A stretch of 39,705 bases of DNA, from the IMG/VR virus record IMGVR_UViG_3300048080_000499, positions 1 to 39,705 of that record. One strand, 5' to 3'. The notes beneath the pieces are model-generated. The model ran no database searches and had not been told where the DNA came from. It saw only the letters and a list, made by a program, of their open reading frames with translations. This document shows, in pieces, positions 18,256-39,213 of this stretch. Positions within the stretch are counted from its first letter, which is position 1; the number at the start of each line of letters is the position of its first letter. This DNA is from a virus (taxonomy: Duplodnaviria; Caudoviricetes). Both the position numbers and the translations under genes were made by a program.

Positions 18256-18320
18256 AAAAATAAAACCGGGGCCGCTCATCCTCAAGGATGTGCGACCCCG
18301 GTCTCATCGACTCTAACGGG
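18256..18320 (-). terminator. Leader terminator with conserved upstream motif (site B)
   Basis: CCCGTTAGAGTCGATGAG-ACCGGGG...CCCCGGT-TTTATTTTT. Confidence 0.75.
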
Positions 18321-18547: not shown

Positions 18548-19240
18548 TTAATCGTCCCGCCACGTCGCCCAGCGGAACCAGTGCTGCTGATCCAGGTTGA
18601 AGGGCAGCCGCGTGTAGGGCGTTCCCCGCTTCCACAGCACGTACGGCAGGCTCAGTTGGTCGGCGTACGTCCAGCGCCGGCACTCCTCCCACCAGGCCTC
18701 GTCCAGCGCCACCACCCCCCGGTCGTTGTGCCGCCGCACGATGCACGTGCACTCCAGCAGGGGCACTTGGTCAGCATAGCCCTCCGCGAAATAGCTCGCC
18801 ACCTGCTCCCGGATCGGCAATCCCGCGTACTTGCGCAGCGGCAGGTGCGCCGCCAGCTCCTCCGCCAGCGTCGTGCGCCAGCGATGCGGGAAGAACGCCA
18901 CCGCCGACTCCTTAACATAGCGCGCCAGGTCGCGCACCAGGTGCGGCGAGTGCACGCGCAGCGAGGCGTCCACCCACACGCTCAGGTCGTAATCCCTCAG
19001 GCACTCGTGCGGGTTGAGCTTGAAATACTTGGCCTGCATCCGGGGGTGGCTCTCCGGCCCCAGGCCGGTCCCCGCGTAGGCGGGGATCACCTGCCAGCCC
19101 TCGGCGTGCCCTGAGCCGGCCGAAGGGGCGCGGTCGGTGAACGCGATGCAATCCGCGTGCCCGCCCTCCCACGCCTGCGGGATCACCGGCCGGAGTTCAT
19201 CTCGATCGCCGAAACAAGAAGTATAGAGCACAACGCGCAT
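18548..19240 (-). CDS. DUF616 (TOD1/MUCI70-like) glycosyltransferase-domain protein
   Basis: VLYTSCFG..DEL, CIAFTD, AKYFKLNPH..L.DYD.SVWVDAS, DQLSLPYVLWK. Confidence 0.75.
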   Translation of the reverse strand: MRVVLYTSCFGDRDELRPVIPQAWEGGHADCIAFTDRAPSAGSGHAEGWQVIPAYAGTGLGPESHPRMQAKYFKLNPHECLRDYDLSVWVDASLRVHSPHLVRDLARYVKESAVAFFPHRWRTTLAEELAAHLPLRKYAGLPIREQVASYFAEGYADQVPLLECTCIVRRHNDRGVVALDEAWWEECRRWTYADQLSLPYVLWKRGTPYTRLPFNLDQQHWFRWATWRDD

Positions 19241-19247
19241 TCTGCCT

Positions 19248-19889
19248 TCAGCCTTCAGCCTTCAGCCTTCTGGATAGCACCCCCAGCCCGAACTGCGCCT
19301 CCGGAAAGACCGGCGGCTCGCAGATCATCCCCTGCCACTCCGGATGCGCCGCCAGCCATTCGTGGATCGCCTGCTTGACCCCGCCCTTTCCCTCCACGTC
19401 CAGGCTGCGCGCGTGCTCGCTCGCGTCGTGCAGCAGCACGAGCGTCCCCGGGTCGGCCACACGTCCGCAGTAGATCTCCAGCTCCCTCACCGTCTGCTGA
19501 TAGTGGTGCGTGGTGTCAATATAGATCGCGTCCCAGGGACCTAACTTCGCCCTGGCGACCACGTGCCCGTCGTGGGAGAAGCCCTTCAGGAAGCTGATGT
19601 TGTTGTCCAACCCCGCCAGGCGCGCGTAGTGCTTGGCCTGCTGCAAATAGCCATCGTCCGGGTCCACGCTGACCACCAGGCCCCTGGGGAAAACCAGGTC
19701 GGCCAGCACCAGCGCCGACCAGCCCAGGTAGGTGCCCAGTTGCAGCACGTTCGTCGCGCCCTGGGCGGCCAGCAGTCCGACCAGGATGTTCAGCTCTCCC
19801 TCCGGCGTCGAGCCGCGCACATCCTGCTCCTGCGCCATGCGCGCCAGCGCCGCCCGCGTCTGCGGTCGCAACGCATCTTGATAACTCAT
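19248..19889 (-). CDS. Class I SAM-dependent methyltransferase (Methyltransf_24-like)
   Basis: VLQLGTYLGWS...SVD...WDAIYIDTTHHY...LLHD...GV. Confidence 0.8.
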   Translation of the reverse strand: MSYQDALRPQTRAALARMAQEQDVRGSTPEGELNILVGLLAAQGATNVLQLGTYLGWSALVLADLVFPRGLVVSVDPDDGYLQQAKHYARLAGLDNNISFLKGFSHDGHVVARAKLGPWDAIYIDTTHHYQQTVRELEIYCGRVADPGTLVLLHDASEHARSLDVEGKGGVKQAIHEWLAAHPEWQGMICEPPVFPEAQFGLGVLSRRLKAEG

Positions 19890-20467
19890 CTCGACACCAC
19901 CAGCACATTGCGCGTCAGCCAGCCCACCCGCTGGCACTCGGGATCCGCCTGGATCGCCGCGCGGATCATCGCGTCGAACGGGTCGCGCCAGTAGCCCCTC
20001 TCCCGGAACAGCGCCTCCCAATACTCCACCGGCTGCTCGTTGTGGTGGTGCTGCCCGCCCTGCCCCGGCGTCGCCGCCGACCACACCACCACCCGCCCGC
20101 ACAGCGTCGCCGAGAAGACCAGGTTGTGCGCGTACTCCGGGTACAGGTGCTCGCCCACCTCGATGCACAGACAGATATCCGCGAAGAACGGCGGCCCCAC
20201 CGGCTGGCGCAGGTCGGCGCGCCGGAACTCCAGTTGCGCCAGCGCCTGCCCGGCCGCCGGGTCGGCGTCCACCCCCAGCACGGCGCACCCCGCCGCGCGG
20301 AAGGGCAGCAGGTAGATCCCCGGCCCGCAGCCCAGGTCGATCACCGCCCGCGGCTTGTAGGTCTTCAGCAGCAGCGCGCCCAGAAACTGCGCCTGGCCCG
20401 CCTCCCAGGTCGTGATGAAGTCCATCGCCTCCTGGCCGTAGTCGTCCAGCGGTGGCAGCCCGGTCAT
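19886..20467 (-). CDS. SAM-dependent methyltransferase
   Basis: VIDLGCGPG...DICLCIEVGEHL...SAATPGQGGQHHHNEQP..YW. Confidence 0.85.
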   Translation of the reverse strand: MTGLPPLDDYGQEAMDFITTWEAGQAQFLGALLLKTYKPRAVIDLGCGPGIYLLPFRAAGCAVLGVDADPAAGQALAQLEFRRADLRQPVGPPFFADICLCIEVGEHLYPEYAHNLVFSATLCGRVVVWSAATPGQGGQHHHNEQPVEYWEALFRERGYWRDPFDAMIRAAIQADPECQRVGWLTRNVLVVSR

Positions 20468-20583
20468 ACCGGCGCCAGCATCACAAGTATGACCAGCGCT
20501 GCCACAGCCGCGGCCACGAGGAGCAGGTGCGTGGCGAAAGAAAGCAGGCGATCGATGATGAGTGTGCGATCCCCAGCGGTCAT
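20464..20583 (-). CDS. Small membrane peptide (39 aa)
   Basis: MTAGDRTLIIDRLLSFATHLLLVAAAVAALVILVMLAPV; ATGA overlaps at both ends. Confidence 0.55.
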   Translation of the reverse strand: MTAGDRTLIIDRLLSFATHLLLVAAAVAALVILVMLAPV

Positions 20584-21311
20584 ACGTTAATCCCCATCTC
20601 GGCCAGCCTCTCCGCCCCCCACTTCTCTACGAACTTCTGCCGGTTGGTCGTGAGTAGGGACCCAATAACTTGTGGCCCGTCCAGCCGCTCCATCGTCGCG
20701 TGCATTTGGTGGTGCAGCCACACGCTCTCGGCCACCCTCAGCGTGTACCCCGCGCGCCGCAGCCGCACCGAATAGTCGAAGTCCTCGTAGTTGCCCGGGT
20801 CGAAGCGCTCGTCCAGGAAGCCGATCTGCTTGAAAGCGCTCTTGCGCACCATCAGCGCGAAGCCGATCAGCACCGGCACAGTCTTGAACACCGAGACGCC
20901 CATCCCCTCCGCCCGGCGTTGAAAGCCGAACACCCGGTCCGTCACCGCGCCCACCGCGCCCACGCGTGGGTCATCAAAGTGCATCCCCCACCTGCGCAGC
21001 CAGCCGTCGTCGCCCGTGGGCACGGCCACGTCGTTGTTCAGCCACAGCACGAACTCCGCTTTGCCAAACAGCGCCACGCCCAGCCCGCAGTTCATCGCCC
21101 GGCAGAAGCCCCGGTTCTCGGTGAGCAACACCATGGTCACGTCCGGGTAATCGCGCACCAGCGCCTCGACTCCCGCGCGCGCGCTCCCGCCATCCACGTA
21201 GATCAGGCGGTAGCCCACGCCCGGCTGCTTGACCCTGATAGAGTCAAGACACCGGCGCGTCAGCTCGAAGTTGTCCCAGCCGGGGATGATGATGTCTACC
21301 ATGTTGCTCAT
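20580..21311 (-). CDS. Glycosyltransferase family 2
   Basis: IIIP..., VDGGS, NRGF...N.G, WLNND, IGFLDERF..GNYEDFDYSVR. Confidence 0.9.
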   Translation of the reverse strand: MSNMVDIIIPGWDNFELTRRCLDSIRVKQPGVGYRLIYVDGGSARAGVEALVRDYPDVTMVLLTENRGFCRAMNCGLGVALFGKAEFVLWLNNDVAVPTGDDGWLRRWGMHFDDPRVGAVGAVTDRVFGFQRRAEGMGVSVFKTVPVLIGFALMVRKSAFKQIGFLDERFDPGNYEDFDYSVRLRRAGYTLRVAESVWLHHQMHATMERLDGPQVIGSLLTTNRQKFVEKWGAERLAEMGINV

Positions 21312-22120
21312 GCTTCCCCTCCCATCGGCGGGATCGCCGGCGTGTCCCCCGCCCCATCTGCGTCCATCTGCGAAATCTGCGGATCACTCTCCAACCTGAG
21401 CGCCGAGGGCGGCACGGCCGGCGGGTGGTCGGCCCAGTAATCCAGGTGCGTCTGCTGGTCCACAAACCCCAGCGTGACGTGGGGCGACTCGAAGAACAGG
21501 TCCACGTAGTGTTTGATCCCGGCCTTGCGGCACAGTTCCCCAAAGTGCATGTCTTCGCTGGGCATGTGCAGCTCACCCTGCGGCCCCACCCGGTAGTCGT
21601 AGCGGAAATACCATGGCCCCAGCCCGCGCCGGTCCAGCTCGTCGAACACCCAGCGCTGGATCGCGATCGCCCCCGTCCCCACCTGCGCCATCTCGAAGAG
21701 CCCCGGCGGGAACGTCGCCAGGTGGTGGATGTCCCCATTCACCCCGGCCCGGAAGGCACACGCCTCGTACGGCTCGCCGCGCCGGAACATCAGCGGCGCC
21801 ACCACCCCCACATCGTGCGCCACCAGCCGCGCGATGATGTTCGCGGGGTGGTCGTGGTCCACGTCGAGCATGACCAGCGTGTCCGTGGGCTGCGTGGACA
21901 CTGCCTTGAACGCCAGCGCCAGCCCCATGCGCGCGACGTCGGTCCGCCCATACTCGCACGCGATGCGCAGGTAGCCGCGCTTCCCCGCCTGGTAAGCCAC
22001 CCGCTCGCGCACCTGCCCCGCCAGGTCGTACTCGCAGCGCTCGCTCAGGAACGCGTACCAGACCCGCTTGGCCCTTGGCCCTTCTTCCCTTGGCCCTTGG
22101 CCCTTGCTCTCGTCTGTCAT
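21308..22120 (-). CDS. GT-A fold glycosyltransferase-like protein
   Basis: LVMLDVDH, GTGAIAIQRWVF, SEDMHF...GIKHYVD. Confidence 0.75.
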   Translation of the reverse strand: MTDESKGQGPREEGPRAKRVWYAFLSERCEYDLAGQVRERVAYQAGKRGYLRIACEYGRTDVARMGLALAFKAVSTQPTDTLVMLDVDHDHPANIIARLVAHDVGVVAPLMFRRGEPYEACAFRAGVNGDIHHLATFPPGLFEMAQVGTGAIAIQRWVFDELDRRGLGPWYFRYDYRVGPQGELHMPSEDMHFGELCRKAGIKHYVDLFFESPHVTLGFVDQQTHLDYWADHPPAVPPSALRLESDPQISQMDADGAGDTPAIPPMGGEA

Positions 22121-22208: not shown

Positions 22209-22634
22209 TCACAGTAGCCCCAGCGCTTGCGCTCTTCGCCCAAACCGCGCGACCATCCGCCCCAGCGCGTAGCAGTACTGTTCCTCAACCGGCATCGTGT
22301 TGCTCGCCTCCAGCCACTTCCGCGTCAGCCCTTTGCGCTCCCCATACGCAAACATCGCGTGGGCGAACTCGTGCGTCACAGCCTCGTTCCATAAACCCCT
22401 GCAATACAGGCTCACACACCCGATGCACCCCGGACGTTTTGAACTCTTGAAAGTCTGCATCGCTCCACCTGTGCTGTTTGAGAAGCCCCCGGTCCCCCAC
22501 GCTTTTCCCTCTGCCCTCAATGCCTCCAGCATCTCTCGCTTCGTCACAAAAACTCGCACGTACACAAACAGACCATGCCCCTCGCGCGGCCCACAATACA
22601 CGCGCAGCTGCCGATAGCCCGTACGGGCCTTCAC
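22209..22634 (-). CDS. HExxH-motif (zincin-like) small protein
   Basis: GTGA overlap with the giant gene stop; AVTHEFAH...EEQYCY. Confidence 0.65.
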   Translation of the reverse strand: MKARTGYRQLRVYCGPREGHGLFVYVRVFVTKREMLEALRAEGKAWGTGGFSNSTGGAMQTFKSSKRPGCIGCVSLYCRGLWNEAVTHEFAHAMFAYGERKGLTRKWLEASNTMPVEEQYCYALGRMVARFGRRAQALGLL

Positions 22635-25600
22635 CTTGCTCCCGTGATCTGATCGTACGCCACCCCATACCTCGGCACCGCCGCCGCCGCCGGGCGCTCC
22701 GCCTGCTGCCCCACGAACATCGCCAGCTCCCGCCCGCTCAGCCCCTTGGCCACTCCCGCGTTGTACGCCGCCGCAATGCGCGGCATCATCAGGCTGAACT
22801 GCAGCGCCGGGTCGTAGCGCTGCTCGACCGTGTACCCATAGCCCACTCCCCGGTCGTGCAGTTGGAAGAGACCCACGCTGTGGCCGGCGTCTCCCACCGC
22901 GCGCGCGTTGCCGTTCGACTCTGCCTTGATGAGAGCGAGAATGAACTCCGGCGGCACGCCCGCCTCGCCCCCGTACTGCGCCGCCATCTCCGCCCAGGCC
23001 ATTACCCCCTCGGTGCCCCCCTGCGGCGTCGTCGCATACGGGTTCGGCGCAATATTGTTGCCGCTCGGCGCAACATTTCCACTCGGCGCCGCTGACGACT
23101 TCGGACTGGCGACTTCGGACTGACGACTTCGGACTGGCGACTGACTGGGCGGTGTTCCCGGATACGTCCACGCCGCCCCGGCTGAGCCGGTCGAAGCCCC
23201 GTAGCTCAGCGCCTCTCCGCCCAGGTTCCCACCATAGGCTAACACGTTCACGAGCCAGGCGTCAAAGTTGCCGCGCCCCCGCCCCCCGGTGGGGAGATCG
23301 GGGGCCCGCCCGGGGCGGTTCCCCTGCCGCTCAAACTCCTGTTGCAGGATCAGGCGCGCCGCCGAGGGCAGCGGCTCGTCCGCGAAGAGATAGGCTGTCA
23401 CCAGCAATTGAATCTCCGGGCTGCCCAACACCTGGCGTCCCTGCTCCGGCTGACTCTCCGGGGTTGGGGCCCCGGCGGCCGTCTCTGGCTGCCCCTGTTC
23501 GGTAATATAGGGCGCCGAAACCGGGTGCGCCGCCAGCCACCCGCGCCGCCAGTCCCAATACTCCCCCAGCTCCGGGTGCTGCTGCACGAAGGCCGTGCGC
23601 GCGCTCACGTCCGTCTCGTCCAGGTAGCCCGCCTCGCGCGGGTGCTGCGCCTTCCACGTGTCGCGCCAGTCCCAGTAGCGCTCCAGCTCCGGGAAGCGCG
23701 CGCGGAACCCCTTGCGCAGCTGCTCCTCCGGGTGCTCGGCCTTGTACGTCCGGTTCCACTCCCAGTAGGCCACCAGCTCCGGGTGCGCCTCGCGATAGGC
23801 CTTGCGCTCTTTGCCCCGCTCCGGCAGCGCGAAGTAGGCGTCCTGCGTGCCGAAGATGCCGGGGTAGAGTCGGTCGCGCTCGGCCGTCTGCAACACCTCC
23901 GGCAGGTTGAAGTACATCTCCTGCAGATCCCCGATCGTCGGGAACAGGCGGTCCTTGGCCGTGTAGAACTCTTCCACCGCCGGGGGATAGGGCGTGTCCG
24001 TCGCGCGCGCGTGCTCCGGGATCTGGAAGTAAGCGCTCTGCAGCGCCCGCACCCAGTCCATGTCGAAGCGCTCGCGCTGGGCGTAGAACTGCTGCGCCTC
24101 CTGCGCCACCTCCGGCGGGGCGAACTCGATCCGCTGCGGGTCGCCCTCCACCGCGCGCGGCACGTACTGCCCCAGCGTGCGCGCCCAGGCCGCCAGCACC
24201 TCGACCGGGATCGCGTCGTACGAGCGCGTTTCTTTGGACAGGAACCCCTCCGTGAAGTCGTCCCCAAAGGCCTGCGTCACCTGCCGCCGGTAGAGCGCTG
24301 GCAGCGCGTCGTAGCCCGTCCACACCTGGTCAATCAAAAAGTTCCGGACTCTTTCCTCGGGCTTGTCGTACAGCGCCAGGCGCGCCTCGTACTCCGGGTG
24401 CTGCTCGAAGAAGCGGCTCAAGGCCTCCGGGTCGCCGTCGTCCTGCGCCCGGTAAGCGGCCGAGAACAGCTCGCCCAGCAGCCGCTGGCGCTGCTCGCCC
24501 TCCGGGAAGACCCCCGACGTCGTCCCGAAGATCATCCCCGTCAGCGTCCCGAACCCGCCCACCTGCGCCGCCCGCCGCTGCGCTGTTTCAAAGACCGGCC
24601 CCGCCCGGTCAATCATCGCCGCGCTCGCCTGCTTCGGGGTGATCAGCCCCTCCGCCGCCATGTTGGCCAGCTCGCGATCCACGCGGTAGTCCTCCCACTG
24701 GTCGAAGAGCGGCAGCCCGAAGTGCCGCCGCAGCCCGGCCTCCACGTTCACGCCCCCGGCCGGCCCGATCCCCAGCGCGGCCGTCAGCGCCTTGAGCTGG
24801 CGCGTCCCCGGCAGCGGCGCGATGCGCTCGGGCGTCCCGCGCGCCGCGTTCCAGGCCCAGGTCAGCGGCAGGTGCGGCCCCACCACCAGGCTCGCCAGGT
24901 CCACCCCGTCGAACTTCAGGTTCGCGTCGTCCGCCTGCGCCAGCTGCACCGCCCGCGCCCAGGCCGTCCCGGACTGCGTCTGCAGCGCCTCGGCGTACTC
25001 CGCCTGGCTGATCTGCCCGCCCGCCACCAAGTCCTCGAGCTTGCGCGCCGCCCGGCTCTCGAGCTTCGTGGTCGCCATCTGCAGCTGCTCCCACGGCTGG
25101 AAGAACTGGTTGATCGGCAGCCCGAACTGCATCGGGTCCACCCACATCCCGCCCCCCATCCACTCCGGCAGGAACGGCAGCGGGATCTTCACCCGCCCCT
25201 CCAGCCGGCTGGGAAAGCCCGGCTTCGTGACCTCCGCGCTCAGGAACTTCTGCACCCGGTAGTAGTTCGCCAGCAGCGCCGGCTTCTCGATCGCCCTCAG
25301 CGCCCACTGCAGCATCGAGTGCGTCATCCAGAATTCGTAGGGAAATACGAGACCTAAGAAGTTGTTGAACTGGTAACGGCGGCTGTAGTTCAGCAGCGCC
25401 GCGTCGCGCTTGAACTGCCCCCACTTCAGCGCGAAGAGCTTCGCCTCCGACATGCGCCCGCCCACGTCGTTCAGCCAGGCGCGCACCCCCGCCTGCACCT
25501 CCGGCGGCAGCGACGCATGTCCGCGGACAACGCCCTGCGCCACCGAGCGCTCGACTCTCCCCTGCAGGTCGTCCAGCACCGGCAGCATCCGGTCGTACCA

Positions 25601-28600
25601 GGCCTCCTCGCGCGCCGCCGCGTGCGGCAGCGGCCCGCCGCCCGTCAGGTCGTCCAGCGTCCCCGGCGGCAGGAACGCGCTCTGCCCCGTGCGCGCCGGC
25701 ACCCGCTGTACAATCCCCGTCTCGATCTCGCGCACCAGCCAGGCCCCGTCCTCGGCCTGCCCGAGCAGCACCCCGCGCTTCCCGTCCGGGAGTGTGAACT
25801 CCTCACCGCCGCCCGCCTGCGCACGGATGGACGAGTCGAGGGCTTCGGTCTGGAATAGAGTCCCCTGCCCCTTCGCGCGCTCCCAGGCCACGGCCCCGTC
25901 CACGCCCGGCTCGCGCTGCGCGATCTCCGCGTAGTTTCGCAGCCACGTGCTCACCTCGTCGGCGCTCGGCGCGCTGCCCAGGTCCGCCAGCAGACTCTTC
26001 TGGAAGGGCGTCAGCGGCGGCGACTGCGCCAGGTAGTCGCTCACCGTATACATCCCCTCCGCCTTCAGCGCGGCTAGTTCCTCGACCGCCACGGTCAGGT
26101 CATCGGCCAACGCTCGGGCCGCCTCGCCCGCCATGGCGATCCCCGTCCGCGCTGCGCGCACGCTTGGGTCCACGTCCGGCAGGGGCGGGACTTCGGCCGT
26201 CATCGCCTGCGCCGCCTGTGTCTCGGACGCCGCCTCCTGCCGCAGCTGGTTCATCTCGCGCAAGAGCACGCCCGCGGGATCCGCCCGCTGCTCCTTGAAG
26301 AGCTGCCGGTAGAGCTTGTTGGCTTTGCGCTGTTTCTTCTTCGCGGAGGCCAGCAGCTTCGTCGCCTCGTCCCGCGCCGCGTTCAGCGCCGCCTGCGCCT
26401 CGGGCGGCAACGGCGCACCCCGCACCGCCTCGGCCGGCACCGGCTCGGCCCTCCCCTCCGGCACCTCCGCGTGCGAGATCAGGTCGCGGCTGAGCGTGTA
26501 CTCCTCCCCGCCCGGCAGCCGTACCCGCACCGCCCCCGGGAAGTCGGCCAGCACCTCCGCCCCCGCCACGCTTGTCTTGGCCGCCCACACCCGCCCGCCC
26601 ACGAGCGCCTGGTCGTAGTTCAGTGTGATCTCCATCCCGGGCGTCAGCGCCGGTGGCCTGAAGGGCTGGATCGCCGCCGCGCCCTGAGCTTGTCGAAGGG
26701 TCTCCCCTCCCAGCAGCCGGTCGAACACCCCCGCCATCTCGTCCTCGACCGGGTGGATGAAGTTCGCCGCCGCCGCGTAGATCTCCCGCAGCCAGTCGCG
26801 CAGCCGCTCGAACACCCGCACCAGCGCCGGGGTCGGGGCCTGCGCCGTCGCCAGATAGCGCTCGAAGTCTCCGGCAAAAGACTCTTCGTGCCCCACTTCC
26901 CAAAGGCCATCGCGCACGCCGTAGTGCTGCTCGGCCACGCGCAGGTCCGCCTCGGGCAGGTCGCGCCGGAAGACGTGCCCGACCTCGTGCACCAGAGTCG
27001 AAACGTCCGGCCCCTCCAGCGCGCGGATGATCGCCCGCCCATCCGCCAGGAACTCCACCGCCCCCTTGTGCCGGAACGCCAGCGCGTCGGCCTGGTACAG
27101 GTTCAACGCTTCGGGGTGCAGCCGCTGCGCCTCGGCCAGCGCCGCGCGGTACCGGGTCGCCAGCGTGTGCTCGCGCGCGCTGAGTCCCTCGGGCAGCGTC
27201 TCGGCGCGCAGCCCGGTCAGCCGCGCCTCCATCGCCGACTCGCGCACGCCCTGCTCGCGCCACAGCAGATACAGGTCGGCCTCCGCCCGGCTCAGGCGCT
27301 TGATCTCGGCCGTCTGGAATAGCGCTGCTTCGCCCGCCCCGCCCTTCCTCACGCCCCGCAGGTGCGTCTCGTACCACTCCTGCCAGGGCCGCCCCGTGTC
27401 GCGCGCCCATGTGCGCGCGCGCGCATCCGTCAGCGCCAGCGTCGTGTCAATCTGCGAGGCCGTCACCTCGGGGAAAGAGTCCACCAGCTGCGCCCGGAAG
27501 CCTGCCCGGTTGAGCGTCACCCCCGGCGCGCCAATGAGATCCGGCTGCAGCGCCGCCGCCTTCTCCGCCTCGTCCAGCGCCGCCGTCACCGTCTCCACGA
27601 CCCGCGCAACTTCAGGAGCCGTCTCCACCGTAGGCCGTCCGGTGATCTCGATCCCATTCGCCGTCAGATAATCGGCCACCCGCTCCGCCGTCACCTGCCC
27701 GGACGTGACTGCGTAATACCCTTGCAATTCGCGATAGGGAACCGACCTCTGTTTCGTTCCGATGAGGATGTTGTGCAGCGCCTCTTCGCCCGCCGGAACC
27801 GTGGTGAGCGCCGCCACTTCGGGGGCGACCGCCGCGGGTGGAGCCGCTGCCACCGGCGGGGCCGCCGCTGCCGCAGCTTCAGGCGCAATCGCTGCGGGAA
27901 TGGGTTGGGGCTGCGCCGCCCCGCCTTCCGCCTCGCTCCGCGGCCTTCCGCCTTCCGCCCCAATCCCCCGCCGCACCTGGATCAGTTCCTGCATCGCCTC
28001 CCACCGCCGCCGCAATCTCTCGTCGTGGAACTCCGTCCAGGCCTTCGCCTGCGCCACCTCCGGCAGCGTGCGCACCTCCTGCCGGAAGGCCCGCACCCGC
28101 CCCATGTCCTCGGCGTTGAACTTCCGCACCGCCTCGCGCCAGGCTGCCACGCGCTCGGCGATCTCCGGCCCGGCGCGCCCGCGGTAAGCGGCCACCAGGT
28201 ACTCGTCCAGCCGCGCCGCGCGGGAGTCGAGCGCCTGCGCCAGGTCGAAATAGGCCGCGTCAATCGCGCGCGTCGTCTCGTTCCAGGCCGCCGTCCTCGT
28301 CCCGGGCGGGTGCTCCGTGTCGAAGAATGCGCGCAAGAGCCGCGTGCGCGTGTCGTTGAAGGCGCGGATGTCGGCCTGCTTCCCGCGCACGGCCGGCATG
28401 AACTCGTCCGCCAATCCTAAATTCGCCTTCCCCATCCCATCCGCCAGCCCCTGGTAGGCGGCCACCTCGCGCGCCTGGTAGTTCGTCCAGACCTCGTCCG
28501 CCTCGGCGAACAGCGCCCGCATCACCGCGCCCTTGGGCTTGCCCTCCCGGTAGACCTCCGCCCAGCGCCGGTCGAGGTTTTGCGCGTGGCGCGTGAACGT

Positions 28601-31555
28601 GTTGAACAGGTCCGTCTCGATCTCGTCCGTGATGTTCAGCACCCCCAGCGCGCCCTCCACCCCGGGCACGTTCGCCGCGCGCTCGGTCATCACCGCCGTC
28701 TCCGCCCGCACCTGCTCGGCGATGGACTTCGCCGCCTCTCGGCGCACGTTCCCGAAGATGCGCCGCACGTCGGAGGGCCTGGCCTTCGCCCCGAGCTTCG
28801 CCAGCTCCGCGTTGAGCGTGTCGCCCACCCCGTCCAGCGCCATCAGCCGCGCCACGTCCGCCTCGCCGATCCCCACCGCCCGCGCCGCCTCGCCGTAGAA
28901 CTGGTGCACCAGCGGGGCCGGGGCCTGGGCCAGCACCGCCGCCGCGATCTCGGCCGGGTTGTAGCCGGCCTGCGCCGCCGCCATCAGGTAGTCCGGCAGG
29001 CGCGGGTCCACGCCGCGCAGCGCGCCCTCCAGCGTCTGCGGCAGGCGCGGGATCGAGACGTCCTTGCGCCAGCTCTGCGACCACATCTGGCGGAAGCCCT
29101 CGAAGTAGGCGCGCGCCCCCTGCCAGCGCTCGATCTTCTGCGCCACGTGCGTGGGCGGCAGCTTGTCGGCGATCGCGCTCGTCGCCCTCCGGATCTCCGC
29201 GAGTATCCCCGTCGTCTCGGCCGCCTTCTGGATCGGCGCCAGCCCGGCCTGCACCGCCCGCGCCCCGATCTGCGTGGCGGCGATGTCGTCCCCCAGGTCC
29301 GCCAGCCCCATCCCCGCCACCGCCCGCGCCGGCAGCACCCCCAGCCGCTCCCACTCCTGCTGGATCCCGGCAATGCCCCGCAGCCCCCACACCCCGTCCA
29401 CGATCGTGGTCAGCTCCCCGTTCCACAGGTTGCGGATCGGGTAGGAGATGTTCAGCCCCAAGAGCGCCACCGACTCCACGCCCTTCACCGCCTGCGCCAG
29501 GCGCGTCACGAAGTCCTGGCCCTTCACCCCGAACGTGCGCGCCGCCCACTCGCCCGCGCCCTCGATCAGCCCCTCCATCGCCGCCGCCTTCAGCATCTCC
29601 GGGGAGTAGGGGATCAGGTCCTCGCGAAACGTCTTGTGCATCTGGGTCAGCACTTCGGCGTTGAGCGACCCGTCGTCCAGCTTCGCCAGCAGCGCCGCGC
29701 CCGACTCTCCCGCCGCCGCCGCTTTCGTACGCAGCTCGCGCAGCAGCACGTCGGCCTCGCCTTGCCCCAGCCGGTCGAGCACGCTCTTGATGTCGGTGCC
29801 CGTCACCGCCGCCAGGTCGCCGAGCAGCTGCTGCTCCGGCGCCGTCATCTGGTAGGCCCGCACCCGGTCGAGCACCGCGTCGGTGTTGATCGAGCGCTTG
29901 ACGATCCGCCCCTCGAGGGCCGCCCCCAGCCGCGCCGCCTCGGGGAAGTCCGCCGGCAGCGCGTCCGGGTCGGCGTTCTTGAACCCGGTCAGCATGCGCG
30001 TCAAGCTGTCCGGCAGGGTGTCGTCGTTGGGCAGCCGCGAGATCAGCGTGCCGAGCGTGTCGTGTGCCCGGAAGACGTGCTCGCTCGCCATGCTCTGCGG
30101 CGTGAGGCGAAACAGATCCCACCACTTCGGCGGCGTGTACTTCCCCGTCGCCGCCAGCGAGAGCAGCTCCTTGCCGATCGTGAAGCGCTGCAAGGCCGTG
30201 AACTCGCGCCCGGCCTGGAAACCCTCCCGCACCGGCTTCATCAGCAGCAGGTTGCGGTAAGCCTCGCGCGTCGCAAAGAGTCCCGGCCGCCCGCGCGTCA
30301 GCTCGGCCGCCTTGAGCAACTCGGTGTCGCCCAGCACCCGCCCGAGCACCCCCAGCCCGCGCGTCTCGACGATGTTGGTGAAGTTCAGGGGGTCGGCGAC
30401 AAAGCCCGAGATCAGCTCGCGGACCTGCCCCGGCACGCCGTACTGCGCCGCCGTCTCGTAGTACACGAGCGCCGGGTCCTCGCCCGCCGCGATCCGCCGC
30501 CGCGCCGCCACCAGCGCCGTCAGCCCGCCGTTTGCCTGCGGCAGGTCGTAGTCCACGAACGTCTGCTGCCCGCCGAACTGACCCGGCCACACCGGCAGCG
30601 CCTCGTACGTCAGCCGCGCCGCCTTCCAGGTTGCGCCCAGGTTGCCGACGACTTCTTCCGGCGTCCCGAATTTCTCCGGCTCGGTCAGCGCCCCGCCGAT
30701 CTGCCCGGCTGTCCCCAGCGTCTGCTCCAGCGCCTGCCTTGGCCAGTCCAGCCAGTGCAGCGCCTGGCCCACCACGTTCTCCTCGTCGAAGCGCCGCTGC
30801 GCCTCCGCCCAGCCGTAGGCCGCCGCCAGTTTCTCCGTCTCCCGTTGCTGATAGCCCGGCAGCAAGTATCCTCCGACTCCGCCCACCGCAAAGCCAATCG
30901 CTCCCCCCACCGGTCCGCCGAGGCCCAACCCCACGATCCCGCCCGTCAGCGCCAGCGGCCCGGCCTGCGTCACCTTCCCCAGCGGGCTGCCCATGAAGGC
31001 CGCAAACCTTCCGCGCAGCGTGCCCGGCGGGCCCGGCGGCAGCCCGAACTCCTGCCCCTGCTGCTCCGGCGGCAGCCCGGCCGCCAGCCCGATGCCCTTC
31101 TGCATGACTGTCCCGCGCTTCGGCTCCTGATAGGTCGAGACCAGCGCGTCGTACTCCGCGCGCGTGATCCCCCTCGTCACCGGCCAGCTGTCCGACGGCA
31201 CCATCAGCTTGCCGTCCTTCACGTAGTAGTCCAGCCCCGTCTCGGCCTGCGTGCCCTGGTACTGGGCGGCTTGCTCCCCGCCCGGCGCGTAGAACTGGCC
31301 CGACTCTCCTGCCGGAGTCGGAGGGGCGAAGCGTTGAATGGGTCTCTGTTCGGGGGGCAGCGGCGCCGTGGGGACGCGCGCCTGCACTACGCGCGCCTGG
31401 CCCGCGCCCGGCAGGCGTTGCCGCGGCAGCCGCGCGATCTGCGTCTCCCGCTCTTGCGGAGTCAGACGAGCCGCGGGGGCCGGGGGCAGGCTGCGTCCTG
31501 AGCCTGTCGAAGGGGGCCTGGTCCGGTAGCGTTTGACGGGGACGCCAGGGGGCAT
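22631..31555 (-). CDS. Giant internal virion/DNA-ejection protein with zincin-like domain and C-terminal lytic transglycosylase (SLT)
   Basis: 2974 aa; STLVHEVGH...EESFA..FERYL; ILALIKAESNGN...SVGLFQL; helical HPEL..YW.W repeats. Confidence 0.8.
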   Translation of the reverse strand: MPPGVPVKRYRTRPPSTGSGRSLPPAPAARLTPQERETQIARLPRQRLPGAGQARVVQARVPTAPLPPEQRPIQRFAPPTPAGESGQFYAPGGEQAAQYQGTQAETGLDYYVKDGKLMVPSDSWPVTRGITRAEYDALVSTYQEPKRGTVMQKGIGLAAGLPPEQQGQEFGLPPGPPGTLRGRFAAFMGSPLGKVTQAGPLALTGGIVGLGLGGPVGGAIGFAVGGVGGYLLPGYQQRETEKLAAAYGWAEAQRRFDEENVVGQALHWLDWPRQALEQTLGTAGQIGGALTEPEKFGTPEEVVGNLGATWKAARLTYEALPVWPGQFGGQQTFVDYDLPQANGGLTALVAARRRIAAGEDPALVYYETAAQYGVPGQVRELISGFVADPLNFTNIVETRGLGVLGRVLGDTELLKAAELTRGRPGLFATREAYRNLLLMKPVREGFQAGREFTALQRFTIGKELLSLAATGKYTPPKWWDLFRLTPQSMASEHVFRAHDTLGTLISRLPNDDTLPDSLTRMLTGFKNADPDALPADFPEAARLGAALEGRIVKRSINTDAVLDRVRAYQMTAPEQQLLGDLAAVTGTDIKSVLDRLGQGEADVLLRELRTKAAAAGESGAALLAKLDDGSLNAEVLTQMHKTFREDLIPYSPEMLKAAAMEGLIEGAGEWAARTFGVKGQDFVTRLAQAVKGVESVALLGLNISYPIRNLWNGELTTIVDGVWGLRGIAGIQQEWERLGVLPARAVAGMGLADLGDDIAATQIGARAVQAGLAPIQKAAETTGILAEIRRATSAIADKLPPTHVAQKIERWQGARAYFEGFRQMWSQSWRKDVSIPRLPQTLEGALRGVDPRLPDYLMAAAQAGYNPAEIAAAVLAQAPAPLVHQFYGEAARAVGIGEADVARLMALDGVGDTLNAELAKLGAKARPSDVRRIFGNVRREAAKSIAEQVRAETAVMTERAANVPGVEGALGVLNITDEIETDLFNTFTRHAQNLDRRWAEVYREGKPKGAVMRALFAEADEVWTNYQAREVAAYQGLADGMGKANLGLADEFMPAVRGKQADIRAFNDTRTRLLRAFFDTEHPPGTRTAAWNETTRAIDAAYFDLAQALDSRAARLDEYLVAAYRGRAGPEIAERVAAWREAVRKFNAEDMGRVRAFRQEVRTLPEVAQAKAWTEFHDERLRRRWEAMQELIQVRRGIGAEGGRPRSEAEGGAAQPQPIPAAIAPEAAAAAAPPVAAAPPAAVAPEVAALTTVPAGEEALHNILIGTKQRSVPYRELQGYYAVTSGQVTAERVADYLTANGIEITGRPTVETAPEVARVVETVTAALDEAEKAAALQPDLIGAPGVTLNRAGFRAQLVDSFPEVTASQIDTTLALTDARARTWARDTGRPWQEWYETHLRGVRKGGAGEAALFQTAEIKRLSRAEADLYLLWREQGVRESAMEARLTGLRAETLPEGLSAREHTLATRYRAALAEAQRLHPEALNLYQADALAFRHKGAVEFLADGRAIIRALEGPDVSTLVHEVGHVFRRDLPEADLRVAEQHYGVRDGLWEVGHEESFAGDFERYLATAQAPTPALVRVFERLRDWLREIYAAAANFIHPVEDEMAGVFDRLLGGETLRQAQGAAAIQPFRPPALTPGMEITLNYDQALVGGRVWAAKTSVAGAEVLADFPGAVRVRLPGGEEYTLSRDLISHAEVPEGRAEPVPAEAVRGAPLPPEAQAALNAARDEATKLLASAKKKQRKANKLYRQLFKEQRADPAGVLLREMNQLRQEAASETQAAQAMTAEVPPLPDVDPSVRAARTGIAMAGEAARALADDLTVAVEELAALKAEGMYTVSDYLAQSPPLTPFQKSLLADLGSAPSADEVSTWLRNYAEIAQREPGVDGAVAWERAKGQGTLFQTEALDSSIRAQAGGGEEFTLPDGKRGVLLGQAEDGAWLVREIETGIVQRVPARTGQSAFLPPGTLDDLTGGGPLPHAAAREEAWYDRMLPVLDDLQGRVERSVAQGVVRGHASLPPEVQAGVRAWLNDVGGRMSEAKLFALKWGQFKRDAALLNYSRRYQFNNFLGLVFPYEFWMTHSMLQWALRAIEKPALLANYYRVQKFLSAEVTKPGFPSRLEGRVKIPLPFLPEWMGGGMWVDPMQFGLPINQFFQPWEQLQMATTKLESRAARKLEDLVAGGQISQAEYAEALQTQSGTAWARAVQLAQADDANLKFDGVDLASLVVGPHLPLTWAWNAARGTPERIAPLPGTRQLKALTAALGIGPAGGVNVEAGLRRHFGLPLFDQWEDYRVDRELANMAAEGLITPKQASAAMIDRAGPVFETAQRRAAQVGGFGTLTGMIFGTTSGVFPEGEQRQRLLGELFSAAYRAQDDGDPEALSRFFEQHPEYEARLALYDKPEERVRNFLIDQVWTGYDALPALYRRQVTQAFGDDFTEGFLSKETRSYDAIPVEVLAAWARTLGQYVPRAVEGDPQRIEFAPPEVAQEAQQFYAQRERFDMDWVRALQSAYFQIPEHARATDTPYPPAVEEFYTAKDRLFPTIGDLQEMYFNLPEVLQTAERDRLYPGIFGTQDAYFALPERGKERKAYREAHPELVAYWEWNRTYKAEHPEEQLRKGFRARFPELERYWDWRDTWKAQHPREAGYLDETDVSARTAFVQQHPELGEYWDWRRGWLAAHPVSAPYITEQGQPETAAGAPTPESQPEQGRQVLGSPEIQLLVTAYLFADEPLPSAARLILQQEFERQGNRPGRAPDLPTGGRGRGNFDAWLVNVLAYGGNLGGEALSYGASTGSAGAAWTYPGTPPSQSPVRSRQSEVASPKSSAAPSGNVAPSGNNIAPNPYATTPQGGTEGVMAWAEMAAQYGGEAGVPPEFILALIKAESNGNARAVGDAGHSVGLFQLHDRGVGYGYTVEQRYDPALQFSLMMPRIAAAYNAGVAKGLSGRELAMFVGQQAERPAAAAVPRYGVAYDQITGAR

Positions 31556-37285: not shown

Positions 37286-37335
37286 AAAAGACCGGGGCGC
37301 GCATCGCCTGCGCGCCCCGGTCTCGTCGACTCTAA
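37286..37335 (-). terminator. Leader terminator with conserved upstream motif (site A)
   Basis: TTAGAGTCGACG-AGACCGGGGCGCGCA...TGCGCGCCCCGGTCT-TTT. Confidence 0.75.
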
Positions 37336-38128: not shown

Positions 38129-38307
38129 CGTTTCGTCTCCTTCACCGGGTGGAGGCCACTGTGAGGATGGCCCCCACCCGGAAGCAAAACAGGCGACCCT
38201 GAGCCCGTCGAAGGGGCAGGTCGCCTGTGTATGCTACAATCTCGGCAACCCTGCCACCGCTCACAACGATGGTTGGGGTCAGGCTCTGGGTGGTGTGTCA
38301 ACACCAC
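38125..38307 (-). CDS. Possible small Cys-containing protein
   Basis: ATGA overlap with the SSB-like gene; weak start context. Confidence 0.35.
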   Translation of the reverse strand: MVLTHHPEPDPNHRCERWQGCRDCSIHRRPAPSTGSGSPVLLPGGGHPHSGLHPVKETKR

Positions 38308-38318
38308 TCAAGGCCGGG

Positions 38319-38348
38319 GCGGGTGGCCGGTGGGCCGCCCGCTTTTTG
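38319..38348 (+). terminator. Intrinsic terminator on the plus (antisense) strand
   Basis: GCGGGTGGCC-ggtg-GGCCGCCCGC-TTTTTG. Confidence 0.6.
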
Positions 38349-38367
38349 TTGTAAATGTTTACTACTT

Positions 38368-38395
38368 ATAATACACCCGCTCCCGGAAGAGTCAA
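38368..38395 (-). promoter_or_regulatory. sigma70-type promoter
   Basis: TTGACT-N16-TATTAT in an AT-rich patch. Confidence 0.6.
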
Positions 38396-38410: not shown

Positions 38411-38482
38411 TGCCCCCGCTCAGAGTCGAACTGAGATCTCCACCTTAGCAGAGCGGCGCTCTATCCTTTGAGCTACAGGGGC
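38411..38482 (-). tRNA. tRNA with anticodon GCT (Ser), short variable loop, Arg-type body; CCA not encoded
   Basis: GCCCCTG TA GCTC AAAGGATA GAGC G CCGCT CT GCT AA GGTGG AGAT CTCAG TTCGACT CTGAG CGGGGGC A. Confidence 0.88.
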
Positions 38483-38487
38483 ATGCC

Positions 38488-38562
38488 TGGTGCCGCCGCT
38501 CAGAGTCGAACTGAGATCGTGGCCTTAGCGGGACCGTGCTCTATCCTTTGAGCTACGGCGGC
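38488..38562 (-). tRNA. tRNA with anticodon GCT (Ser), short variable loop, Arg-type body, C33; CCA encoded
   Basis: GCCGCCG TA GCTC AAAGGATA GAGC A CGGTC CC GCT AA GGCCA CGAT CTCAG TTCGACT CTGAG CGGCGGC A CCA. Confidence 0.85.
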
Positions 38563-38563
38563 A

Positions 38564-38638
38564 TGGTGCCCCTGGTCGGAGTCGAACCGACATGCTCTCC
38601 GTGCGACGGGAGTGCTCGATCCATTGAGCGACAGGGGC
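38564..38638 (-). tRNA. tRNA-like gene, Arg-type body, irregular anticodon arm (CGC in canonical register)
   Basis: GCCCCTG TC GCTC AATGGATC GAGC A CTCCC GT CGC AC GGAGA GCAT GTCGG TTCGACT CCGAC CAGGGGC A CCA. Confidence 0.75.
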
Positions 38639-38641
38639 ATT

Positions 38642-38698
38642 AAAAAGCACGGGGCGATCCGTGGTTCGGACCGCCCCGTGCTCATCGCATCTAACGGG
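38642..38698 (-). terminator. Terminator with conserved upstream motif (site C), directly before the tRNA array
   Basis: CCCGTTAGATGCGATG-AGCACGGGGCG...CGCCCCGTGCT-TTTT. Confidence 0.75.
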
Positions 38699-38706
38699 CT
38701 AGTTCT

Positions 38707-39213
38707 TCAGGGACACAGACTCAAGTCGAACGACACGTAATCGCCGTGCACCCAGGCGCGCACTCCGAAGGCCTCCACCTCCAGCCAGTCTCCCTGCTCG
38801 CCGATCACATCCAGCCGGTCGCACCGCCGCAGATCGCCAATGTCCTGGTAATCCGCACCGGGTCCGGACCGCAGGTTCAACCCTTTCGAGACGACCACGG
38901 CGGGCGTGCCGGCGTTCATCGGCGGGGGGATCGCTTGCCTTTGAAAGTTCGGCCCGGGAACCTTCGGCGTCTCGCCGCGAGGTGGCGCCGCGGGAGTCGG
39001 CTCGGTAAGTCCTTGCGTGAAACCGGATCCCAAGCCGCCGGCCGCCGGTCCCAGAAGCGCCGCCGTGACAAACACAGCGAAGCACAGGTAGCCGCTCCCC
39101 AGGCCAACCCCAATCCCTGCCACTCGGCAGACCCAATCACGCCAGTGATAGTGTCGCTTGAAGTAGCCGCTGAGGGGAAACATCAGGATGGCTCCGATCA
39201 CCAGGGGAATCAT
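38707..39213 (-). CDS. Membrane-anchored SH3b-domain protein
   Basis: AAGGAGG RBS; two TM helices, Pro linker, LNLRSGPG.DY...GDWLEV...AWVHGDYV. Confidence 0.85.
   Translation of the reverse strand: MIPLVIGAILMFPLSGYFKRHYHWRDWVCRVAGIGVGLGSGYLCFAVFVTAALLGPAAGGLGSGFTQGLTEPTPAAPPRGETPKVPGPNFQRQAIPPPMNAGTPAVVVSKGLNLRSGPGADYQDIGDLRRCDRLDVIGEQGDWLEVEAFGVRAWVHGDYVSFDLSLCP

Follow-up and report, generated by a model that had tools for sequence, protein, structure and literature searches.

Here we describe phage tRNA genes that join a body of arginine type, as judged from its identity elements, to the serine anticodon GCU, together with the family of 150 distinct Arg-bodied GCU/ACU tRNAs, drawn from viral contigs and GTDB genomes, to which they belong. 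We favour, tentatively and somewhat short of an even chance, the reading that these are damped Ser-to-Arg missense tRNAs that serve in genetic conflict, which would act as a conditional RNA poison, because a purine at position 34 (R34) keeps the determinants of arginyl-tRNA synthetase (ArgRS) and because A20 is retained.

The tRNA cassette of the window phage

The window, meaning the whole stretch of DNA analysed here (39,705 nt), is a 39.7-kb phage contig with matches to a terminase, a major head protein, a holin, a replication O-like protein and ParB; the one phage protein compared with 401 Chloroflexota genomes matched none of them (0/401). Its minus strand also encodes a protein of 2974 aa whose C-terminal domain is lytic transglycosylase-like (22631-31555), probably an internal virion or ejection protein, and, between the portal region and the head genes, a cluster of glycosyltransferase and methyltransferase genes (18548-22120) that possibly serves virion glycosylation.

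ARAGORN and Rfam place three tandem minus-strand tRNAs at 38411-38638 (Table 1). The two GCT cloverleaves described in an earlier, sequence-only reading are both present, recovered by the two programs and by direct inspection, while the third tRNA-like gene had been overlooked there. Copy 1, also an ARAGORN call, scores 61.5 bits in Rfam (E 4e-11), and copy 2, called at 38491-38562 by both programs, scores 54.5 bits (E 4e-9). Both have complete acceptor (7/7) and T-stem (5/5) pairing, G18-G19-A20 in the D-loop, an A15:U48 pair, a 4-nt variable loop, A73, and GCT followed by AA in the anticodon loop. In copy 2 a C27.A43 mismatch leaves the terminal anticodon-stem pair open, whereas the stem of copy 1 is not shortened to 4 bp and contains two G.U pairs. 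Minimum-free-energy folding of the whole molecule yields no cloverleaf for copy 1 or the third gene; the covariance model does. The anticodon of the third gene can be read as CGC in a 7-nt loop or as UCG within an 8-nt loop, and this gene also has C9 and C21.

Table 1. Features of the tRNA cassette and its transcriptional surroundings in the window
Feature	Position	Strand	Details
Arg-bodied tRNA, copy 1	38411..38482	-	anticodon GCT 38449-38447; U33; A73; no encoded CCA
Arg-bodied tRNA, copy 2	38488..38562	-	anticodon GCT 38529-38527; C33; 4-bp anticodon stem; encoded CCA
Third tRNA-like gene	38564..38638	-	A20; A73; encoded CCA; irregular anticodon arm
Intrinsic terminator	38641..38682	-	17-bp hairpin and U run; z -6.7; ends 3 nt before the first cassette tRNA
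Motif TTAGA-NNN-GAYGA-NNN	38679..38697	-	3-bp stem and pentaloop; overlaps 5' arm of the cassette terminator
Motif, copy 2	37320..37335	-	between a sigma-70-like promoter and the terminator preceding the holin/terminase/portal genes
Motif, copy 3	18301..18316	-	at the terminator that lies upstream of the head genes
Variable upstream gene	38707..39213	-	SH3 domain; hydrophobic N-terminus; a different gene in L402
Sigma-70-like promoter	38368..38395	-	downstream of the cassette; also in relatives without tRNAs

In bacteria, arginine identity rests on A20, C35, U/G36 and A/G73, with position 34 not among the determinants, and serine identity rests on the long variable arm required by SerRS (as set out in part of PMC9976931). 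Both window copies carry the complete arginine set (A20, C35, U36, A73), with the minor pair C3-G70 present and G2-C71 absent, and they lack both the long variable arm and the discriminator base G73 of tRNA-Ser(GCU). Their anticodon reads no arginine codon, since GCU pairs with AGC/AGU. The best annotated phage match is a tRNA-Arg (E 3e-7). Because the arginine set is present and the arm on which serine identity rests is absent, the body appears to be of Arg type, as the earlier reading had proposed. With position 34 outside the listed determinants and the long arm required by SerRS, it also follows that a purine at position 34 is the one anticodon change predicted to keep arginine charging yet alter the amino acid decoded.

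The cassette varies among related phages. Three close relatives (L361, L364 and L374, with terminases 84-88% identical) align on both sides of the slot and have no tRNAs in it. Another relative, L402, has both GCU genes, each of them with C33, and the anticodon arms are swapped; its terminator and third gene are nearly unchanged, and the third-gene body is identical. A contig from an independent run (X2) shows the same arm swap, with both GCT anticodons unchanged on differing anticodon stems and the third gene unchanged; run X1, possibly the source run, has no differences from the window and is not independent. Recombination of the third gene with copy 1 gave single hybrid copies in X5 and X9, copy 2 is skipped in X13, and another X9 contig lacks 38404-38701 altogether. 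Copy number thus runs from 0 to 3 among relatives, and GCU is retained in every copy read. As relatives either keep GCU despite arm swaps or do without the cassette, we regard the cassette, on this comparative evidence, as a genuine accessory module. The earlier judgement that a base-call error is unlikely is borne out by L402 and X2, and the random anticodon decay in homologs that had been named as a possible refutation is not seen.

The genetic code of the phage is unaltered. AGC is the commonest serine codon in 18 chosen phage genes (158/390), where AGY accounts for 180 codons against 53 for AGR (AGA and AGG, out of 639 arginine codons). Across the 28 AGY sites compared in three proteins, the relatives have mostly Ser (often TCG/TCC) or Thr, with Arg in close relatives at one site only, itself variable. 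AGC does occupy the conserved serine site in the GSNP motif of TerL, as first noted; the one ORF tried for a claimed DUF616 domain (DQLS) gave no Pfam match. In transposases adjacent to odd tRNAs, 1/76 AGY codons falls in a column with consensus Arg, versus 5/294 in controls. A private code or AGY reassignment was therefore ruled out, since AGY codons do not lie at conserved arginine positions in phage proteins or adjacent transposases, and AGC still means serine in the window phage, in agreement with the sequence-only reading. The same reading's suggestion of host-proteome sabotage is disfavoured for the phage's own lytic growth, because AGC is the commonest serine codon in its genes.

A dispersed family with recurrent structural defects

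The census used a pattern for short-armed A20 bodies. In viral contigs, the search for short-arm GCT tRNAs that had been proposed at the outset returned 24 GCT loci, along with 24 ACT loci. The same pattern with GCT or ACT matched about 200 stretches in GTDB, of which 120 were fetched and 118 parsed (75 GCT and 43 ACT). By record title the hosts include Proteobacteria, Acidobacteriota, Bacteroidota, Actinomycetota, Chloroflexota, Planctomycetota, Bacillota, Patescibacteria and others, as well as two archaea. For comparison, canonical YCT bodies number about 12,000 viral stretches, an estimate from 1 of 64 parts. No family member was found among cultured phages and plasmids, the two matches opened being canonical tRNA-Arg; in a one-mismatch survey of Chloroflexota, canonical tRNAs predominated among the 150 matches listed of 486.

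A purine at position 34 is far commoner than the matched control: purine-34 bodies occupy 48 viral loci versus 3 for a purine at position 33 (R33), or about 30 versus 3 after duplicates are collapsed. When A34 anticodons with G36 are set aside, ACT makes up 24/34 of the remaining A34 loci (16/24 distinct). A metagenome scan for window-like bodies that was blind to the anticodon gave Arg anticodons in 117/120 matches and GCT in 3/120, and no other anticodon occurred. When positions 20/20a were left free, 59 viral loci were recovered and 6 dropped as non-tRNA matches; A20 was present in 52/53 of the remainder (34/35 distinct bodies), in a sample confined to bodies without a shortened D-loop. In 5/5 isolate genomes the odd tRNA is additional to the host set: a long-armed match read as Ser-GCT is also present, all four Arg types occur in 4/5 and three in the fifth, and the odd gene lies 19-29 nt from them.

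The nearest neighbour of 157 bodies is another GCT/ACT body in 109 cases, a canonical one in 31 and a tie in 17, and in 61/157 the nearest R34 neighbour carries the other purine at position 34. Tree labels change 54 times versus 125 when shuffled, so the family is, as far as these distances indicate, clustered but with many origins, and its counts are not phylogenetically independent. A few members are probably plain point mutants. A scan of the CAAG clade gave 8/8 ACT, but from near-identical copies, which makes it uninformative.

Structural defects are a further hallmark. An open acceptor top (unpaired 1-72 or 2-71), an anticodon-stem mismatch or C33 is found in 122/150 members, leaving 28/150 defect-free, as opposed to 9/114 canonical tRNAs with any such defect. 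The acceptor top is open in 58/150 and closed in 92/150. At most 5 of 7 acceptor pairs form in 33/116 genome and 15/35 viral bodies but in 0/114 canonical ones, and the top three pairs are nearly always those lost. Mismatches at acceptor pairs 1-3 recall protist 5' tRNA editing. The anticodon arm is perfect in 39/58 open-top versus 28/92 closed-top members (Fisher p 1e-5, for counts that are not independent). C33 occurs in 24/90 GCT, 2/61 ACT and 1/114 canonical bodies, and a full viral C33 scan gave 5 GCT, 0 ACT and 37 YCT. Most members have one structural defect and seldom two kinds, a pattern suggestive of a single brake in each copy, and the open and closed acceptor classes may differ in role. 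In an open-acceptor subclass (L538-L545, L001/L006-type gut phages, L086, L108, L129, L151 and L156) only acceptor pairs 4-7 form while the other arms are perfect, and these genes often stand beside defence genes or have a terminator directly 3'. An origin of the open-acceptor class as integration-site remnants was rejected: no duplicated 3' fragment lies within 5 kb at 33/33 loci, and no tyrosine integrase was found among the nearest neighbours.

Some members lie within mobile elements or beside defence genes. Among 80 genome loci with long flanks, 15 lie between IS inverted repeats, as does one viral locus; the elements are IS1-like, IS1595, IS4-type and IS6-type, several of these loci have 7-10-bp target duplications, and the tRNA usually sits just upstream of the transposase. 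Among 49 IS1-like elements of Alphaproteobacteria drawn by transposase alone (one of them, from the unpublished genome G245, negative), one had an Arg-bodied ACT tRNA that was new, irregular tRNA-like genes of another sort occurred in three, and a canonical tRNA-Arg in none. Irregular tRNA-like genes lie near IS1-like transposases at L600:1377-1449, L614:2341-2412 and L618:2214-2285, which suggests that the cargo of IS1-like elements includes odd tRNAs of several kinds. Other members adjoin CBASS, Gabija, type I RM, NACHT, FRG, HNH and NucC-like genes. Defence adjacency was seen at 11/79 loci (open-acceptor 9/33, closed 2/46), as labelled by hand from 67 neighbours chosen after Pfam results, with one duplicate pair and without a background rate. 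Panacea (2 loci) and RelB (1 locus) also occur near family members, so that a link with transposons and toxin-antitoxin systems like that of the allo-tRNAs exists for the family and not for the window. No conserved partner protein emerged among family neighbours, where recurrence is confined to transposases and a few small families; nor did any synthetase, editing enzyme, nuclease or toxin recur among the neighbours scanned. In three unrelated genomes (L133, L153, L162) an SPFH/Band 7 gene lies directly 3' of the odd tRNA, and in L100 (5000-5060 and 8194-8254) a second, inverted tRNA-like copy lies 3 kb from the GCT gene.

Proposed gating of the cassette and readings of its function

The motif-gated terminator noticed in the sequence-only reading is confirmed: three terminators in the window have a 16-nt motif overlapping the 5' arm (3 copies, where shuffles give 0.03). 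The 3-bp stem of the motif shows covariation (GTC/GAC versus TGC/GCA), and L361, L362 and L402 retain the holin copy. The shared motif is likely a phage antiterminator site not described before, as predicted from these features. Like lambdoid nut/boxB, this candidate site combines a short stem with a GA-rich pentaloop and recurs at terminators within a single phage, but unlike them it overlaps the terminator arm itself. Read-through transcription into the cassette likely comes from the variable upstream gene. The promoter at 38395 was ruled out as driver of the tRNAs by its downstream position and its presence in tRNA-less relatives. Upstream terminators are uncommon in the family (7/137). A leader of about 230 nt (38130-38360, minus strand), with several strong hairpins and a terminator, separates the conserved promoter from the phrog_21613 gene; it is conserved in relatives, with hairpin insertions.

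Under the missense reading, host ArgRS is predicted to charge these accessory tRNAs with arginine, which they would insert at AGC/AGU serine codons at a damped rate, likely serving as an RNA-only poison where phages, transposons and hosts are in conflict, with the structural defects acting as brakes that would hold toxicity tolerable. In the window its terminator would likely keep the cassette silent until RNA polymerase is let past by an antiterminator that acts on the shared motif. More speculatively, in a carrier cell a related incoming phage could supply that antiterminator, and the resulting Ser-to-Arg errors might then spoil its many-subunit virions or arrest the cell.

The excess of R34 over R33, the interchange of G and A at position 34, the mobile context and the anti-correlated defects all speak for this reading. 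Recognition by ArgRS seems to be wanted, because A20 is kept while other brakes are used, and its retention is telling, since loss of A20 would be the simplest way to stop arginine charging. There is also precedent: parts of PMC10404621 and PMC5389517 describe tRNA-ProX and allo-tRNAs, respectively, as mistranslating and toxic in E. coli. On the other side, the open-acceptor members (58/150) are probably poor ArgRS and EF-Tu substrates. The phage's own antiterminator could also trigger the cassette in lytic growth and harm the phage, given its AGC-rich genes and the presence of the gating motif at its late operons; neither an integrase nor a repressor was found in the window phage, so a lysogenic state is not indicated. 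Furthermore, adjacent transposases do not clearly avoid AGY (77/222 serine codons versus 295/707), the neighbourhoods hold no conserved partner gene, and one defect per copy also fits selection for harmlessness.

The main and serious rival, which we consider possible though distinctly less likely, is that the RNAs are non-decoding tRNA mimics that retain the surface facing ArgRS, either binding ArgRS or titrating or inhibiting a tRNA-targeting defence nuclease or toxin. A purine at position 34 would then avoid pyrimidine-34-dependent cleavage or copy the tRNA-Ser(GCU) loop, each defect would remove mistranslation, and in the window phage the tRNAs would serve as RNAs of counter-defence, turned on together with the lytic genes. 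The co-gating of the cassette with the late operons and the AGC-rich phage genes agree with such a role, as do the open-acceptor members with perfect D, T and anticodon arms, 9/33 of which adjoin defence genes. Many allo-tRNA(UAU) are moreover translation-inactive and tied to transposons and toxin-antitoxin systems (Mukai et al., in part of PMC5389517). However, 28 of the 150 members are defect-free and 92 have closed acceptor tops, A20 would be needless for a loop decoy and is nevertheless retained, and no nuclease or toxin partner recurs. ACU, the anticodon of about 40% of the family, is to our knowledge that of no natural bacterial Ser tRNA and would thus copy none. Nor does the C33 of copy 2, taken earlier as a hint of a non-decoding role, imply one by itself: C33 barely impairs yeast tRNA-Leu(GAG) in the part of PMC13492127 that treats it, and a non-U33 base is described as a damper of natural mistranslating tRNAs in part of PMC11415595.

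Improbable, and disfavoured for the family as a whole, is drift, in which the genes would be pseudogenes of an acquired tRNA-Arg with a still recognisable body. The absence of the cassette from three close relatives, its variable copy number and the many origins of the family would be expected of drift, and L098, L185, L092 and L181, which differ from canonical tRNA-Arg by 3-7 nt, may have arisen by point mutation or through errors of assembly. Yet R34 lies far above R33, other mutant anticodons are rare, the D and T stems remain 94-99% paired although bodies differ by a median of 13 nt, the anticodon is kept through arm swaps, and the defects are anti-correlated, where cumulative decay would pile them up together.

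Still harder to sustain is the view of the genes as spare arginine decoders, which would read AGA/AGG by relaxed wobble from A34, I34 or G34, aided by 4-bp stems or C33, and escape attack on tRNA-Arg(UCU/CCU), the misreading of AGY being a cost that is tolerated. The arginine identity is intact and tRNA-Arg(YCU) is very common viral cargo (the 12,000 or so stretches above); 4-bp anticodon stems have been proposed to widen wobble (in part of PMC13092985), and the AGR share is higher in transposases beside odd tRNAs (43/231 versus 65/951), a difference confounded by host GC. Against this, Watson-Crick pairing with AGY should dominate, the phage itself has 180 AGY versus 53 AGR codons, and the hosts checked keep their own Arg tRNAs. 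Least probable of all, a serine tRNA charged by an unusual route, or an edit of position 34 to a pyrimidine, would suit an AGC-rich phage in the former case but conflicts with the missing long arm and G73 and with the lack of a recurring synthetase or editing enzyme nearby, and editing, one of the earlier suggestions, is unlikely because G34 and A34 versions are both common.

Significance and comparison with known systems

A bolder extension of the missense reading, which we think rather unlikely, is that these 75-nt tRNAs form a cross-phylum class of stand-alone, brake-tuned RNA weapons, with a phage version that is a trap sprung by related phages. Such weapons would exploit the free position 34 to hijack host ArgRS and turn serine AGY codons into arginine, carried by IS elements, defence islands and phages; if true, the cassette behind a late-gene motif would be a natural counterpart of synthetic genetic firewalls. 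We know of only a few, narrow cases of natural missense tRNAs. The Arg-bodied GCU/ACU class would do without a partner protein, passes in annotation for ordinary tRNA-Ser, and with a single narrow pattern already yields about 200 GTDB stretches; its more than 100 natural variants with separable defects offer material for asking whether controlled mistranslation is a weapon of bacteria and phages. The alternative at stake is that of tRNA mimics as stand-alone defence or counter-defence RNAs, and whichever role holds, a function would be added to the tRNA cargo of transposons and phages. The terms searched in PMC13092985 and PMC8007984 brought up no mention of such tRNAs in those texts, and no description of the class was found in the full-text literature as far as its main texts reach; supplementary isotype-mismatch tables or the tRNA lists of Mukai et al. 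might include members.

Phage tRNA-Arg(UCU/CCU), including tRNAs that counter anticodon nucleases such as PARIS, are likewise phage cargo with the same body. Those countering tRNAs keep the cognate anticodon and restore decoding; unlike them, the Arg-bodied GCU/ACU tRNAs change the codon read. The codon-changing tRNA-Ser(CAG) of Candida, with G33 (as cited in parts of PMC11415595 and PMC13492127), is similar in having a non-U33 base and damped decoding, but belongs to a fungal, genome-wide reassignment, whereas here AGC is still serine and the base is C33. Closer parallels are found in allo-tRNAs and irregular tRNA polycistrons (in part of PMC5389517), in which missense or inactive tRNAs with stem-destabilising changes lie near transposons and toxin-antitoxin systems, with tandem arrays of odd tRNAs. 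Allo-tRNAs, however, have an 8/4 or 9/3 fold, mostly serine identity and diverse anticodons, while the present family has the canonical 7/5 fold (as in both window copies), a short arm and GCU/ACU only, and would work in the reverse direction, placing Arg at Ser codons. Like tRNA-ProX of Streptomyces and Kitasatospora (ProA, ProN, ProT; described in part of PMC10404621), the family couples the body of one amino acid to the anticodon of another, is mis-annotated by anticodon and is additional to the canonical set. Unlike tRNA-ProX, with its Pro body and co-encoded ProRSx, it has an Arg body and no synthetase nearby, would use the housekeeping ArgRS, and occurs across many phyla, where phages, IS elements and defence regions carry it. 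By analogy, then, Arg-bodied GCU/ACU tRNAs would work like the dual-identity tRNA-ProX and share the context of allo-tRNAs, while departing from the defining features of both.
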